From Candidatus Omnitrophota bacterium (GTDB lineage: Bacteria > Omnitrophota > Gorgyraeia > Zapsychrales > JBAZNR01): a DNA stretch of 64,000 nt. The translations under genes and the position numbers were made by a program. This document shows positions 43,132-50,231 of this stretch, piece by piece (the first letter of the stretch is position 1; every line of letters starts with the position of its first letter). The stretch lies in contig JBAZNR010000001.1 in the NCBI GenBank assembly GCA_041649175.1, forward strand, positions 588,956-652,955, read 5' to 3'. Below the pieces are notes generated by a model that did not search any database, was not told the origin of the DNA, and saw only the letters and a list, made by a program, of their open reading frames with translations.

Positions 43132-45105
43132 TTAGTTGCCGATATGGATAGGGTTTTCGCTCGGACGCTCCCTTGGCCGCGGCTTGTTGTGAGCAACATA
43201 ACCTCCGGCGACATAATTATGGTAACTGTCTACCTCAATATTGTAAACTTTTACTTTTTCGGTCATCTTTTCAATTGACTGGATAGGTTCATTTTCTTTT
43301 TTATTGTTTAAAAGAACATCGCCTGTTTTAAGCGAACCTATTTCAACCCATTGGCCATCGCTTAAAAAATGGTGGTTTGACGTTACTTTTAAGTTTCCGT
43401 TAATGATAAGATAATCGCCGGAATTATGCTCAAAAATTTCTGTAACTTTCCCAGGCTTAAATTCACCCGTATTTTCGTCAAATGATAAAACCTCATCACC
43501 TATCTCGACTAATTCAATCGGTTTCTGTGAACCGTTGGACATGGTAATGGCTGTTCCTGCTAAAAAGCAAACCGGTGGTGGTGGACACGCTCCGCAATCC
43601 AAAGGACAGATACTGCAGTTTTCCGATGCTGAGTTGCAGTAACCGTCAGGGCAAGTGGGGCAATCTTGTGGGCAACTACCGCTTGTCTCACTGCCATTAC
43701 AAATTTGATCACCACAGCGTGGCGCGCAAGGAGGGCAATAGGGACACGTCGGGCAATTTTCGGCCGCCTCACAAATATTGTCGTTATCACAATTAGCCGG
43801 ATTATCATTACAATCTTCGGGACATTCTGTGCTATTTTCTGCATCGCTACAGATGCCATCGCCGCATAAAGCGCCCGTCATGGGAATTCCTTGGTTTTTC
43901 AAGAAAACAGTTGTTGATACTTTTGAACTTGTTCTTTGCGTCGTCGGAGTTGCGTCTTTTCCGGCATCAAGGGTGATCAAAATAGTTCCATTTTTTACAC
44001 CAGGTGTAGTTTCTCCATATTGGAATAAAATACTTTTAGCCTCTCCGAGCGTGGTGGCTCGAGATAGTCTTCGGGCATTGTCTTCTGCATAAGCCGTACC
44101 GGTAAATAAGTCGAGAAATCCCAGGGGGCCGATATTATCATCCGGAATATATTCATGACAGCAGTCCTGATTACATTGAATAACGATTTCGGGAGTGACA
44201 TTGCCAGGTCCAATTTCTTCACGTGGAAGAGTATCTCCGACATTATTAACATTTCTTATATCGTCATCGGAAAGTTTAGCTCCGGAAGTAAAGACATTTG
44301 TATCATCCTCTTCTTCAAGCCGGGGGTTAATGACATGGTCATCAGCCGGCGCGACATTGCCCCCAGATTCTGCGGCTGTTAGTTCAATACACCGTTCTTC
44401 TCTGTCACAGACACCGTTACCACAGCGAGGACAATCATTAAGGCAATTTGTTTCATTTTCATACGGCCTATCGCAACGTCCGTCATAGTGAGCGGCATCG
44501 TTTACATCGGGGTGAGCCAGGCATGAAACGCAATCTACTGCACATCCCTCGACTGTTTCGTGGGACTCGCATTCACCGTTACCGCAGATCTCAACCGTAT
44601 CCGAATAAACGATATTACGCATAAGATGTTCTTTTCCATCTGGGCCAAAGGTGACCTTATATTCGACCCAACCTGTTTGTGTTGGGACATTGCTGACATT
44701 TGCTCCGTATTTAATTCTTGCCGTGCCGCTACCCTCAGGCGTAAAAATAGTATTGGCGACAGGGTTTGTGTCAGCAATGGGAAGTTTAAATAAGAGGCGA
44801 TTTTCCTCCCCTGGTGGAAGTCCTGTACAATAATTGGGGGAATTAACATTAGAATCGCAGGGGAGGATTTGAACAGTGTTATCGCTGATATTAGAGAAAG
44901 AGAGCTCTTTCGCGATCGCATCTACGTTACTGCGCGCGCTAGCGATAGAGGCCGTTTTGTTGGCTGTCACCAAGGAAGACCCGATGCCGGCTCGGCTGGC
45001 CATAGCGATCGCCGAAATGACGGCAACCGAAAGGACAGTAACAGTCATAACTTCAACGAGGCTAAACCCGAGTGCGTTAATTATTTTTGTTTTTTGAGTC
45101 TTCAT
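43132..45105 (-). CDS. giant type IV pilin-like protein (657 aa): class III signal, Cys-rich repeat modules, C-terminal Hint/BIL domain (copy C)
   Basis: MKTQKTKIINALG|FSLVEVM prepilin cleavage/methylation motif with Glu at +5. Repeated C-G-[ND]-G-x-C...C-P-x-D-C modules. C-terminal CFLAGT...TSNHHF...VAHN Hint blocks. GAGGAGG RBS. Confidence 0.7.
   Translation of the reverse strand: MKTQKTKIINALGFSLVEVMTVTVLSVAVISAIAMASRAGIGSSLVTANKTASIASARSNVDAIAKELSFSNISDNTVQILPCDSNVNSPNYCTGLPPGEENRLLFKLPIADTNPVANTIFTPEGSGTARIKYGANVSNVPTQTGWVEYKVTFGPDGKEHLMRNIVYSDTVEICGNGECESHETVEGCAVDCVSCLAHPDVNDAAHYDGRCDRPYENETNCLNDCPRCGNGVCDREERCIELTAAESGGNVAPADDHVINPRLEEEDDTNVFTSGAKLSDDDIRNVNNVGDTLPREEIGPGNVTPEIVIQCNQDCCHEYIPDDNIGPLGFLDLFTGTAYAEDNARRLSRATTLGEAKSILFQYGETTPGVKNGTILITLDAGKDATPTTQRTSSKVSTTVFLKNQGIPMTGALCGDGICSDAENSTECPEDCNDNPANCDNDNICEAAENCPTCPYCPPCAPRCGDQICNGSETSGSCPQDCPTCPDGYCNSASENCSICPLDCGACPPPPVCFLAGTAITMSNGSQKPIELVEIGDEVLSFDENTGEFKPGKVTEIFEHNSGDYLIINGNLKVTSNHHFLSDGQWVEIGSLKTGDVLLNNKKENEPIQSIEKMTEKVKVYNIEVDSYHNYVAGGYVAHNKPRPRERPSENPIHIGN
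43186..43569 (-). other. Hint (Hedgehog/intein) domain, bacterial-intein-like, at the C-terminus of pilin C (aa 513-640)
   Basis: Block A CFLAGTAITMSNG, block B TSNHHF (TxxH), terminal YVAGGYVAHN ending in His-Asn. The +1 residue is Lys, followed by 16 more residues and then stop. Confidence 0.65.
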
Positions 45106-45193
45106 TGTGTATCCTCCTCAATAATGATGATCAATGGTGATCAACGGAAATATTTTTATCTTTCAAGAACTTTTTTAGAAGAAAAGAACTTAA

Positions 45194-45232
45194 AATAAAA
45201 AAATCTCATCCGCGCGAAACAAGCGATGAGAC
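45194..45232 (-). terminator. intrinsic-terminator-like hairpin in the leader of pilin C (read on - strand: GTCTCATC...GATGAGA + U-run)
   Basis: Stem TCTCATC/GATGAGA with an adjacent 10-nt A-run on the + strand (a U-run on the - strand transcript), about 90 nt upstream of the start codon. Conserved with 50279-50313. Confidence 0.5.
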
Positions 45233-48209: not shown

Positions 48210-48242
48210 AACGAACTCTCCTAAAGCAAAACCCTGGAAATT

Positions 48243-50231
48243 CTATTTCGGGCATGCTCCGCAGTCAGCAGAACAGCTGTGACAATCTTCTGTTTTGCTG
48301 TCGCATGTTTTATCGCCGCAATTTGCGGGAGGACATACTCCGCAATCCGCGGGACAGCTGGTACAATCTTCTCCCGCAGCGCCTTTGCATACTCCGTCGC
48401 CGCATGGATCAGGCGGTGCGCAACAATCATTGGCACAGTTAGCGCAAGTTTCGCCTTCTTCACAGCTTCCATTGTTATTACACGCTGGCGGCGGCGCGTC
48501 GCAATCCGCCGGACAAGAAACATAGGTTTCATTGGCGTCACAGGTTTCGTCACCGCAACAAGGAGAACAATCGGCGCATCCGCAAGCCTCATTGCCGTTA
48601 CATTCTCCGTCGCCACATTGACATTGGCCGCAATCACCGGAACAATCCGTGCAGGTTTCTCCGGCATCACATGTTCCGTTGCCGCAAACAGCCGGCTCCA
48701 AACAATCTTGAGGACAATTATTTTGATCTTCACTGCCTCCGCAAAGATAATCTCCGCAGGCATCAATCGTGGTGTAATTATAGCCCGGGTTTTTGAGTGA
48801 GACTTTTGTTTTTAGCTTATATGTCCGTCCTCTTTGAATGCCGGCCTGAGGTTGGGATGAGGTCAGGTCAATAGCTACCGTGCGGCTTCCCTTATTGAGG
48901 GTAAAATCAAGGCTGCCCATTTTTTCCGCGATGACTGTTTCGCCGGCTGAAGCGATGGACGGTGTTTCTTGCGCGAAAACTAAACCAGAATTTTGTGAAA
49001 ATAAGGAATCCCACACATCCATTAGAACTTGTTCCTCTGGAACTTGTTCCTCTTCGTCAGCTTGGATCTCATCTTCGGGTGTCGTCGGATTATCCTCTCC
49101 TCCTAAACATTTTCCGCAGTCGGCTTCGCATTCTTCGGAATTTGGGTCCACAGGAGGAACTTCGGGCGGAGTTTCCTCCAAGTCTGCTTTGCATCGATCA
49201 GCATCTTGATAGCAAGCCGTTAGGTCGTCCAAACAGTCCATGGTGTAAGGACAATTTTGTTCAAAGCCGTCATAGCATTTTTCAACTTGCAATTCGCAAT
49301 TGGTAGGATCTCCTTTACAAGTCTCTAAATGTGCCTTGCATTCTTCCGGAACGGTTTTGGCAAGTTCTCCGCAATTAGCAGGGTCGCCGTAGCATTGTTC
49401 AAGATATTCCAAGCAGGGCATGGGATAGGAACAACCCTCGACAGAAGTACATTTATTCTCAATATTCGATTTACATTGATTAAGATTAACAATGCAAGAA
49501 AGTAGGAAATTGCGGCAGGCGGTCGTTCCTGAAGTGTTGCCAGGCGAGTCTCCGGTAAGATCGTCGCCCTTACCATCTCCATCGACATCAGGAGGCGGCA
49601 CTTCTACTGTGTCAATCATGCAACGCTCTGTGCTACTGCAGACAGCATCGCCGCAGTAATTGCAATCATCAAAGCAATTATCTAAAGTTTCTCCCCAACT
49701 GCATTGCCCATCGAAAAATGGCGTTGCTTGGAGGCAGGATGAGCAATCTTTTCCGCAATTAACGACTGTGTCGGTTCCGTTACATTCGCCGTCGCCGCAG
49801 TCATTAGCAGGGTTACGCAGAACATTTTTAACGAGTTGTCCTTGAGGATTGACTTTAATTTCATAAATAGCGTCCTGTCTGTGCGCGTTGCCGACTAAAG
49901 CGCCGAATTTTAATTTTCCATCCGGATCGTAATAACTATTGGCTTTTGGAGTTAAGCCTGCTACAGGAACTTTGTAAAGGATTTTTTCTCCCTGACATTC
50001 ACTTTCGGCGCAAGGAGAGACGACCGCGATAAGATTTTCATTGGACAGAGAAATTTCCTGGGAAAGTCGTGTGAGGGCGTTGCGGCTGCTGGCAACGATC
50101 TCCGCGCCGCTACTGCCGGACAAAGCCGCGTCGATACCGGCGTGATTAGCAATAGCGATTGCGCCAAAAACAGCCGTTGCTAAGGCTACGGTGACTAAAA
50201 GTTCAGTAAGGGATAAGCCTTTGATCTTCAT
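48243..50231 (-). CDS. giant type IV pilin-like protein (663 aa): class III signal and extensive Cys-rich repeat array (copy A)
   Basis: MKIKG|LSLTELLV prepilin motif with Glu +5 and an AAGGAG RBS. The N-terminal extension in the ORF track back to 50318 is probably spurious. The C-terminal ~170 aa is almost entirely CGDGxC...C..DC modules. Paralogue of 43132-45105. Confidence 0.7.
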   Translation of the reverse strand: MKIKGLSLTELLVTVALATAVFGAIAIANHAGIDAALSGSSGAEIVASSRNALTRLSQEISLSNENLIAVVSPCAESECQGEKILYKVPVAGLTPKANSYYDPDGKLKFGALVGNAHRQDAIYEIKVNPQGQLVKNVLRNPANDCGDGECNGTDTVVNCGKDCSSCLQATPFFDGQCSWGETLDNCFDDCNYCGDAVCSSTERCMIDTVEVPPPDVDGDGKGDDLTGDSPGNTSGTTACRNFLLSCIVNLNQCKSNIENKCTSVEGCSYPMPCLEYLEQCYGDPANCGELAKTVPEECKAHLETCKGDPTNCELQVEKCYDGFEQNCPYTMDCLDDLTACYQDADRCKADLEETPPEVPPVDPNSEECEADCGKCLGGEDNPTTPEDEIQADEEEQVPEEQVLMDVWDSLFSQNSGLVFAQETPSIASAGETVIAEKMGSLDFTLNKGSRTVAIDLTSSQPQAGIQRGRTYKLKTKVSLKNPGYNYTTIDACGDYLCGGSEDQNNCPQDCLEPAVCGNGTCDAGETCTDCSGDCGQCQCGDGECNGNEACGCADCSPCCGDETCDANETYVSCPADCDAPPPACNNNGSCEEGETCANCANDCCAPPDPCGDGVCKGAAGEDCTSCPADCGVCPPANCGDKTCDSKTEDCHSCSADCGACPK

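Follow-up and report, generated by a model that had tools for sequence, protein, structure and literature searches.

Riboswitch-like leaders, pilin-like modules, and arrays of a cysteine-rich mini-module in a conserved gene cassette of Candidatus Omnitrophota

The genome of an uncultured Candidatus Omnitrophota bacterium, which was assembled from a metagenome (assembly GCA_041649175.1), encodes two large proteins, here called Pilin A and Pilin C, which begin like type IV pilins and carry long arrays of Cys-rich modules of about 20 residues. This raises the question of what such proteins are and why a pilin would be extended in this way. The window examined is a stretch of 64,000 nt from contig JBAZNR010000001.1 (positions 588,956 to 652,955 of the forward strand), and all coordinates below are positions within it. 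A preliminary description of this DNA, made from the letters alone, had called both proteins pilins and had drawn attention to their arrays. The answer we favor, and which we hold to be rather probable, is that the two proteins are minor pilins of modular build, under riboswitch control, with disulfide-stapled modules serving as a stalk. In the course of the analysis, several features were found that the preliminary description does not mention, which are a Hint domain, a heptad-spaced Cys repeat, a gene fusion, a conserved cassette with large partner proteins, and riboswitch-like leaders.

Pilin A and Pilin C are encoded in a block of four genes on the minus strand. The Pilin A gene (48243..50231, minus strand) starts with an ATG at 50231 that is preceded by AGGAG, and encodes a modular, type IV pilin-like protein of 662 aa with 70 Cys. 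It is followed, 33 nt downstream, by the gene for an 857-aa partner protein (45636..48209, minus strand), which belongs to a conserved family without annotation. The Pilin C gene (43132..45105, minus strand) encodes 657 aa with 37 Cys, consisting of a pilin module, Cys modules, and a Hint domain, and the gene for a 938-aa partner (40297..43113, minus strand) begins 18 nt downstream of it. Ribosome-binding sites are good for all four genes. The two pilins are 34% identical over their first ∼230 residues, the two partners are 39% identical to each other, and the leader regions upstream of Pilin A and Pilin C can also be aligned. Based on these pairwise similarities, the block is, judged by sequence comparison, a tandem duplication of a two-gene unit (pilin and partner) that includes the leader. 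The possibility that the repeat region is a frameshifted assembly artefact, which the preliminary description had raised, was rejected. Pilin A is identical to the NCBI entry "hypothetical protein WC676_02410" and Pilin C to the NCBI entry "Hint domain-containing protein," the two being encoded on a contig of 1.23 Mb, identical proteins are on record in NCBI, JGI, ENA, and Logan, and both paralogues and orthologues keep the frame and the architecture.

The pilin assignment rests on the N-terminal part of the proteins. A class III signal motif with Gly at -1 and Glu at +5 is present in 13 of 13 family members, reading GLSLTE in Pilin A and GFSLVE in Pilin C. In Pilin A, the motif, a hydrophobic alpha1 segment, and a conserved Cys pair make up the pilin module (residues 1-144, 49800..50231, minus strand). 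Word-indexed searches were run with three queries, namely Pilin A, the N-terminal part of Pilin C, and the alignment of the partner proteins, and returned almost only self matches. An exhaustive HMMER search, for which the query was a profile of both pilins and clusters were formed at 50% identity, found ten short proteins (217-368 aa) that match the N-terminal part of the query and align with the Pilin A pilin module. These short pilins start with a prepilin-type leader and a module of ∼150 aa in which two Cys are invariant; the three Cys modules that come next can be aligned with the proximal modules of both window pilins. When the family profile was compared with the PDB, the best matches were type IV pilins, limited to the alpha1 helix (E = 0.002). 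In addition, N_methyl (PF07963) was detected in 6 of 87 related or array-bearing proteins (best 8.4e-7) and TIGR02532 in five (best 3.4e-6). An AlphaFold2 model of full-length Pilin C places a helix at residues 16-71 and strands at 78-167, with predicted local distance difference test (pLDDT) values of 40-80. Taken together, the signal motif, the PDB matches, and the homologues that reach TIGR02532 and N_methyl bear out the pilin call of the preliminary description.

Following the leader and pilin module, each protein continues with three proximal Cys modules, a variable linker, a region resembling a separate gene of related loci (gene 2, below), and a distal array of four or seven modules. 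This layout is similar to that of the modular pilins reviewed previously, which include PilB (vWA) and PilC (lectin) of Streptococcus sanguinis, CofB of enterotoxigenic Escherichia coli, TcpB of Vibrio cholerae, ComZ of Thermus thermophilus, and GspK of the type II secretion system (PMC8179133). As in those proteins, a small N-terminal pilin module bears C-terminal grafts, the expected place is the filament tip, and the architecture varies between relatives. Unlike in those proteins, the grafts here are tandem Cys mini-domains of ∼20 aa and, in some members, a Hint domain, and the window proteins combine, by fusion, a pilin with a protein that is secreted on its own in related genomes. A text search of the supplementary text of that review found no Hint or cysteine terms.

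To count the modules, a module hidden Markov model (HMM) was built from 10 hand-picked modules; it also detects modules on which it was not trained, at least 10 in an orthologue and six in the unrelated protein P0002. In Pilin A, the HMM finds seven modules in the last 171 aa (residues 492-662, 38 Cys, 48246..48758, minus strand), three proximal modules (residues 145-206, 49614..49799, minus strand) that are conserved in 12 of 12 aligned family members, and a half module (residues 364-375), which makes 10-11 modules overall. In Pilin C, it finds four distal modules (residues 414-507) in an array that extends over residues 414-512 and contains 20 Cys (43570..43866, minus strand), and three proximal modules (residues 174-240, 44386..44586, minus strand) that are also delineated by the family alignment. 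The tandem Cys-rich mini-modules first described for both pilins are thus present, and every peptide quoted at the time was found. The earlier count of about five modules in Pilin C is roughly right, and the count of at least eight in the last 170 aa of Pilin A has to be lowered to seven for that segment, with 10-11 holding for the whole protein.

A strict regular expression of the motif has six matches in Pilin A and three in Pilin C, as compared to none in 5,000 residue shuffles of each, and the strict motif is absent from all other open reading frames (ORFs) of the window. Cys positions within the arrays show little autocorrelation (z ≤ 2.2), since the modules range from ∼20 to 28 aa in length. 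Regarding the concern that the Cys pattern might prove non-periodic, the repeat is therefore real at the level of the motif, and a fixed-lag periodicity was not seen. The statement that the repeats are degenerate at the DNA level holds, since Tandem Repeats Finder reported no DNA tandem repeat in the arrays and the self-matches of array DNA are short (23-44 nt, 61-91%). A CRISPR-like or DNA tandem repeat was rejected on the same empty Tandem Repeats Finder output. Pilin A contains a second Cys repeat of a different type (residues 239-353, 49173..49517, minus strand), which is built from C-x6-C units and includes three ∼35-aa repeats such as CLEYLEQCYGDPANC. Here, the autocorrelation is pronounced at lag 7 (z = 5.4) and lag 14 (z = 4.2). 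This segment was the best-scoring stretch of none of the best 150 of the 2,167 matches of the exhaustive search.

The consensus of the module was derived from 737 modules parsed from 87 database proteins of the exhaustive search. The signature is C-G-[DN]-G-x-C-x3-E-x4-C-P-x-D-C, with a core of 19 residues and an optional extra Cys pair. The Gly after the first Cys (C1) is conserved in 97% of the modules, [DN] in 99%, the second Gly in 73%, Glu in 97%, the Pro after C4 in 63%, and Asp in 99.6%, and C5 is often followed by G-x-C6. The spacing between C2 and C4 is exactly 8 residues in 82% of the modules. The positions between the conserved residues are small, polar, and freely variable. The four core Cys were never substituted in 894 HMM-aligned modules. 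An AlphaFold2 model of the Pilin A array, calculated with a 38-sequence alignment, has a mean pLDDT of 78, with values >90 in the last modules, and shows no regular secondary structure except for one helical turn at P-x-D-C in each module. No solved structure of the module was found in the PDB by sequence or fold search. More speculatively, the module may represent a new fold family.

At E ≤ 1e-3, the exhaustive search returned 2,167 cluster representatives, of which 554 also pass E ≤ 1e-10. In almost every case the match is confined to the array, and most matches fall on the distal array of Pilin A. A strict single-module DNA pattern was also scanned in species-representative genomes and occurs in at least 120 stretches. 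Among the 80 of these that were listed, many are from Myxococcota (including cultivated Sorangium), and DPANN archaea, Methanosarcinales, Planctomycetota, Anaerolineae, Acidobacteriota, Patescibacteria, and others are also represented. The 87 carriers, with two to 19 modules each, are secreted or surface proteins that bear signal peptides or MYXO-CTERM anchors, and comprise trypsin-like proteases, phospholipase D, polyhydroxybutyrate depolymerase, NosD-like, FG-GAP, SdrD-like, MYXO-CTERM, and pilin-like proteins. In these carriers, the arrays are neighbors of catalytic domains, adhesive domains, or anchors at the C-terminus. Neither Pfam nor NCBIfam has a model that covers the module in either pilin, in the isolated arrays, in two idealised arrays, or in the 87 carriers. 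Based on these comparisons, the module is a widespread extracellular mini-domain that is uncatalogued in the Pfam and NCBIfam libraries searched. Pilin-like N-termini together with Cys-module arrays were also observed in P0020 and P0080 (GFxxxE, bacterial type) and in P0088 and P0111 (archaeal-looking, "QQAVEY"). The combination of pilin and module seems to have arisen more than once.

The distribution of Cys within the modules suggests that they are oxidized. About half of the modules contain two optional Cys, with C3 at the third position ahead of C4 and C6 at the third position past C5. Among the 737 modules, 302 have both, 380 have neither, 15 have C3 only, and 40 have C6 only (odds ratio 191), and in 35 of the 40 C6-only cases, C6 serves as C1 of the next module. 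This strict pairing fits an optional third disulfide between C3 and C6, in addition to two disulfides that are predicted for the module core. After removal of leader and catalytic Hint Cys, the mature Cys count is even in 12 of 13 pilin-family members; the 37 Cys of Pilin C, for example, are 36 plus the catalytic Cys513. The heavy dependence on disulfide formation proposed in the preliminary description is plausible, with indirect support from the even counts and the paired optional Cys. The DsbA-like gene that it had connected with this requirement (1803-2591, plus strand) was confirmed as to its domains (Thioredoxin_4, 6.7e-27; DSBA, 2.5e-16), and the N-terminus of the product looks, by eye, like a hydrophobic segment or membrane anchor. 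The active site is CPYS, not CxxC, and contains the only Cys of the protein. Lacking the second active-site Cys, this protein, which is encoded 41 kb away, is not a canonical thiol oxidase and cannot be assumed to be the oxidase for the ∼53 predicted disulfides.

Seven related loci (L001-L007) were recovered, and each of them encodes a pilin and, downstream of it, a homologue of the large partner (∼740-870 aa); some loci have a further gene (gene 2) in between. The cassette is flanked by PAC2 and era in L001, L002/L003, and L006, as it is in the window; L004 and L007 show era only, and L005 shows neither, its contig starting at the pilin gene. Wherever both flanks were recovered, the cassette sits between PAC2 and era. 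One pilin-family member, P0026 (L002/L003), is recorded as Omnitrophota, and the lineage of the other loci was taken from synteny. The partner family comprises nine proteins that are 27-38% identical to the 938-aa protein and, with the window copies, spans ∼740-940 aa. The partners share an N-terminus made of K-G and a hydrophobic segment without Glu at +5, and have no Pfam match and no sequence match in the PDB.

Gene 2 encodes a protein with a signal peptide, a conserved region that is strand-rich by eye, and a Cys-module array, in some cases with a Hint or dockerin-like end. Stand-alone copies are located at L002:9126-10091, L007:1587-2390, and L005:886-2286. By BLASTP, residues 410-658 of Pilin A align with residues 23-263 of the L007 gene 2 product (E = 5e-38, 42% identity) and residues 320-652 of Pilin C with residues 34-314 of the L002 gene 2 product (E = 3e-51). 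These alignments reach the end of the signal peptide (marked by a slash), pairing LGFAQ/T with LVFAQ/ET and AYA/DG with AYA/ED. Both window pilins therefore carry in their interior a vestigial signal peptide followed by the conserved pre-array region, ending in GLVFAQ/ET in Pilin A (48759..49025, minus strand) and in TGTAYA/ED in Pilin C (residues 325-413, 43867..44133, minus strand). Because the C-terminal halves align with gene 2 including the signal-peptide end, the sequences indicate that the window pilins are fusions of gene 1 and gene 2, or else that the related loci are splits. The products of gene 1 and gene 2 probably act together. Two further observations were made in L004. At L004:8393-8491 (a run of N, with flanks at 8230-8560), neighboring modules with identical DNA sequences caused a break in the assembly of a gene-2 homologue, which points to recent duplication and a variable number of modules. 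At L004:3347-3973, a gene-2 variant has a dockerin-like, Ca-binding end (weak Dockerin_1 match) in place of an array or Hint domain, and the distal end of the cassette proteins appears to be exchangeable.

The distal array of Pilin C is followed by a Hint domain (residues 513-640, 43186..43569, minus strand), which lies just outside the interval of 43576-50231 that the preliminary description had covered. It matches Pfam PT-HINT with 1.4e-15 (58.2 bits versus a cutoff of 27.7) and the intein C-terminal model TIGR01443 with 20.1 bits (cutoff 15.6), and contains Cys513, a TSNH motif, and His639-Asn640. Hint domains also end P0026, P0049, and the gene-2 proteins of L002 and L004. All five family Hint domains share Cys1, TxxH, and the terminal His-Asn without exception. 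Asn is followed by only 10-25 more residues, of which the first is K, Y, G, K, or A. In Pilin C, this tail is Pro/Arg-rich, starts with Lys, and is 17 aa long (43135-43185, minus strand). The closest solved structures are the bacterial intein-like (BIL) domain of Clostridium thermocellum (2lwy, E = 4.7e-11) and BIL2 of Tetrahymena BUBL (6tmm/6y75, ∼9e-9), and BIL2 and the C. thermocellum BIL domain were also the top Foldseek matches of a Hint-region model that is only partly confident. A canonical splicing intein was rejected, as there is no Cys/Ser/Thr nucleophile at +1 and the domain is near the C-terminal end, and so was a toxin-releasing PT-HINT architecture, as only the 17-aa tail and no toxin domain follows Asn640.

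The Pilin C domain is thus predicted to be a BIL- or Hog-like autoprocessing domain with an intact catalytic set. Together with BIL domains, PT-HINT, and Hedgehog Hog (1at0), it has the Hint fold and sequence, Cys1, TxxH, and His-Asn, and these domains are found in variable secreted proteins. Unlike in PT-HINT proteins, it is located at the extreme C-terminus of a pilin with no toxin to release, so that the cargo would be the N-terminal pilin-stalk, and unlike Hedgehog, it has no sterol-recognition region. The missing +1 nucleophile is shared with the cleaving BIL domains, which cut at their ends rather than splice (PMC7765530). Literature searches found no description of a type IV pilin that ends in a Hint or intein-like domain.

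The leaders of both pilin genes contain an element that resembles a riboswitch for cyclic di-GMP (c-di-GMP). Upstream of Pilin A, a c-di-GMP-I-clan riboswitch-like aptamer (50336..50463, minus strand) matches RF03167 over the full model, positions 1-80 (41.9 bits, E = 1.7e-7). A homologous one upstream of Pilin C (45239..45357, minus strand; 38.4 bits, E = 1.7e-6) falls inside the interval covered by the preliminary description. Orthologous aptamers were found at L002:7805-7892 (53 bits), L006:6294-6381 (44 bits), and L001:1935-1994 (36.9 bits). All five are full-length, with E values of 1e-9 to 5e-5, and are located just upstream of every pilin gene examined. A P1 core of the form GGYAAACC...CCGUAAGG...GGGRCRCAAAGC is conserved in the five loci. 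The likeness to the c-di-GMP-I clan (Rfam CL00126) is convincing at the sequence level, with the scores of 36.9-53 bits remaining under the RF03167 gathering score of 59 and thus short of membership by the Rfam rule.

Between the aptamer and the Pilin A start, a scan found a terminator-like hairpin with a U-run (50287..50312, minus strand), which is a candidate expression platform. The Pilin C leader has, by alignment, the homologous terminator-like sequence CTCATC...GATGAGATTTTTTT. A conserved, promoter-like TTGAA(A/T)-16-TATACT precedes each window aptamer, the Pilin C copy being TTGAAT-16-TATACT at 45457-45430. The layout is typical of a transcription-termination riboswitch and is compatible with a surface-attachment function, c-di-GMP being a candidate ligand. 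c-di-GMP riboswitches commonly control pilus and adhesion genes. As in c-di-GMP-I (GEMM-I) riboswitches, an aptamer-like element and a terminator-like hairpin precede a pilin operon; unlike in these, the best model is the variant RF03167 (c-di-GMP-I-GGC), and the two window copies have long insertions. A separate observation concerns the plus strand at 32810-34846, ∼5 kb from the cassette, where an ORF codes for 678 aa that comprise, at the N-terminus, a PilZ domain (a receptor for c-di-GMP) and also a region weakly similar to GH76. This is another possible c-di-GMP output.

Combining these features, our current hypothesis is that expression and function proceed as follows. A change in the level of the second messenger would switch transcriptional read-through into the pilin gene. 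The prepilin would then be inserted into the membrane, its leader cut, and its Cys oxidized in the periplasm. Since the protein is bulky, it would join, with the partner protein, the tip of a type IV filament, where bulky modular pilins have been argued to sit (PMC8179133). The disulfide-stapled modules may there act as a semi-rigid stalk, thin and resistant to proteases, that keeps the distal end at a distance from the filament. In Pilin C, the Hint domain would form a thioester at Val512-Cys513 and remove itself, leaving or transferring the C-terminus of the stalk.

Several points weigh against this hypothesis. Against Pfam N_methyl, the window pilins themselves reach E values of 0.36 and 0.63 (10-11 bits, cutoff 21.2), and with a mean pLDDT of 46.6, the model of full-length Pilin C is too poor a basis for judging the pilin fold or the packing of the pre-array region. 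No type IV pilus machinery gene is among the scanned ORFs of the window. Many Omnitrophota are anaerobic, and extracellular disulfides there need a dedicated system; no dedicated extracellular disulfide-forming system was found in the window, where the DsbA-like protein has the single-Cys active site described above. The pairing of the core disulfides could not be derived from correlated Cys loss in the 894 modules because the four core Cys are never substituted. The aptamers stay below the Rfam gathering score. The Hint domain is patchy across the cassettes, being present on gene 1, gene 2, both, or neither, and is therefore not essential to the cassette. Nothing is distal to the array in Pilin A, so that this array may itself be functional, as a binding end rather than a spacer, and the invariant D/N, E, and D of the module could mean that Ca2+ or a ligand is bound.

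The last of the points on function lead to the strongest alternative, which is that the arrays are the adhesive or ligand-binding part of the proteins, for example in a Ca2+-dependent manner on a surface polymer of a host or prey, rather than a passive stalk. Not only Pilin A, but also its L001 orthologue and several stand-alone gene-2 proteins end in an array, the D/N, E, and D residues are conserved to 97-99.6% in the 737 modules, beyond the apparent need of a spacer, and module number varies quickly, as the near-identical adjacent modules of L004 illustrate. However, the module occurs in very different proteins of many phyla, which is more in keeping with a generic structural module than with specificity for one ligand, and the variable residues between its conserved positions also speak against this alternative. 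We therefore regard an adhesive array as a possibility to be kept in mind, and as the less probable role. An analogy can be drawn to the LDL-receptor class A, EGF-like, and thrombospondin type 3 modules found in extracellular proteins of eukaryotes, which are tiny, are held by disulfides and conserved acidic residues, and form tandem rods or spacers. Unlike these, the Cys module is half the size, and no sequence or fold match connects it with them.

A second alternative questions the location. Instead of belonging to a surface pilus, Pilin A and Pilin C could be pseudopilins, either of a system akin to type II secretion or of another type 4 filament, or could be periplasmic proteins that are anchored in the membrane and have retained no more of a pilin than its N-terminus. 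This would agree with the lack of pilus machinery among the scanned window ORFs and with weak NCBIfam matches of homologues to GspH, HpsC, and "Verru_Chthon cassette protein C" pseudopilins. The N-terminus of the partner protein, with K-G and a hydrophobic segment without Glu at +5, would also agree with it, being similar to that of GspK- or PilX-type cap subunits. On the other hand, it is hard to see what use long disulfide-rich extensions and a terminal Hint domain would have in the periplasm, and c-di-GMP riboswitches, which the leaders resemble, commonly govern pilus and adhesion genes. Moreover, most Omnitrophota genomes are reported to encode type IVa pili (PMC10066038). A periplasmic or pseudopilin role is, for these reasons, unlikely in our judgment.

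The module itself could be a divergent form of the Myxococcus cysteine-rich repeat (TIGR02232/PF13948 DUF4215), which the preliminary description had suggested as a candidate family. DUF4215 repeats also start with C-G-[DN]-G and have an acidic residue before a later Cys. Both are short Cys-rich tandem repeats of extracellular proteins that are abundant in Myxococcota, where the module is especially common, and one carrier contains the module and a DUF4215 match together. The profile searches did not bear the suggestion out. Neither pilin matches DUF4215 or TIGR02232 at E ≤ 1, and the isolated arrays and the two idealised arrays have no DUF4215 match at E ≤ 10 (E ≤ 10 applying to Pfam and E ≤ 1 to NCBIfam). 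DUF4215 is detected in only 1 of the 87 carriers, despite their many modules, and 7-19 true repeats would sum to a large score. Unlike the Myxococcus repeat, the module has the spacing C-x4-C-x8-C-x3-C with an invariant Glu and P-x-D-C, and its distribution is much broader, extending to DPANN archaea. The Myxococcus-type repeat thus appears to be a reasonable neighborhood for the module, and we consider membership in that family quite improbable. Other models were matched sporadically among the carriers: three match Somatomedin_B, which appears to be a separate domain, as judged from one excerpt, and one matches the MopE copper motif.

The weakest alternative, that the Cys clusters bind Zn, Fe, or Cu and form no disulfides, could appeal to the C-x2-C within the six-Cys module variant, the single MopE match, the absence of CxxC from the only DsbA-like protein in the window, and the anaerobic life of many Omnitrophota, but is very unlikely given that the optional Cys come strictly in pairs where a tetrahedral metal site would need four, that 12 of 13 family members have an even number of Cys, that the modules have no conserved His, that the carriers are secreted or surface proteins, and that classical zinc knuckles have spacings other than the C-x4-C and C-x3-C of the core.

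The arrays also account for a set of long ORFs that overlap the pilin genes and that the preliminary description had advised against annotating. The ORF at 48221..48766 (minus strand) is the +1 frame of the Pilin A array, which has no stops and stays open in 100% of codon shuffles, the ORF at 48279..48800 (plus strand) is antisense to the same array, and the ORF at 43560..43859 (minus strand) is the +1 frame of the Pilin C array. The third does coincide with the Pilin C array, and its end is 43859, not 43869 as written earlier. The +1 sense frame has no stops in either array, and the antisense frame opposite the gene frame has none in the Pilin A array and one in the Pilin C array. Outside the arrays, every alternative frame of each pilin gene contains 9-44 stops. 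When the codons of the arrays were shuffled, the alternative frame was open for as long as observed in 100% (Pilin A) and 78% (Pilin C) of trials. The overlapping ORFs are therefore by-products of the amino acid and codon composition of the arrays and not genes, as had been proposed. All three should be suppressed in annotation, and the pilins, partners, and leaders can then be annotated properly. The surrounding ORFs that were scanned in the window are housekeeping genes, with pyrimidine synthesis, era, PAC2, YjeF_N, Ddl, and PurH.

A more speculative role can be considered for the Hint domain, by analogy with the closely related BIL2 of Tetrahymena, which needs no ATP to attach its N-terminal flank to lysines in other proteins (PMC8616854). 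The Hint thioester might transfer the C-terminus of the stalk to the gene-2 protein, to the partner, or to a nucleophile on a host or prey surface, the acceptor being an amine or another nucleophile and the product an isopeptide conjugate formed independently of ATP, as with BIL2 (PMC8616854). We give such a covalent connector a small chance of being correct. If it were, the gene1-gene2 fusions of the window would be a hard-wired version of a product that is ligated in other genomes, and a phylum of ultra-small, probably host-dependent bacteria would possess a covalently attaching pilus.

A Cys module of ∼19-24 aa that occurs in more than 2,000 clusters of bacteria and archaea, with neither a model nor a solved relative, deserves a family entry and a structure. 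In its cassette context, the predicted pilin-stalk-Hint architecture extends the modular-pilin theme, and we did not find the combination described. Host interactions of Omnitrophota have been inferred and are unexplained (PMC10066038). The cassette of pilin, secreted array protein, and large partner offers a concrete candidate for the attachment apparatus of these bacteria.

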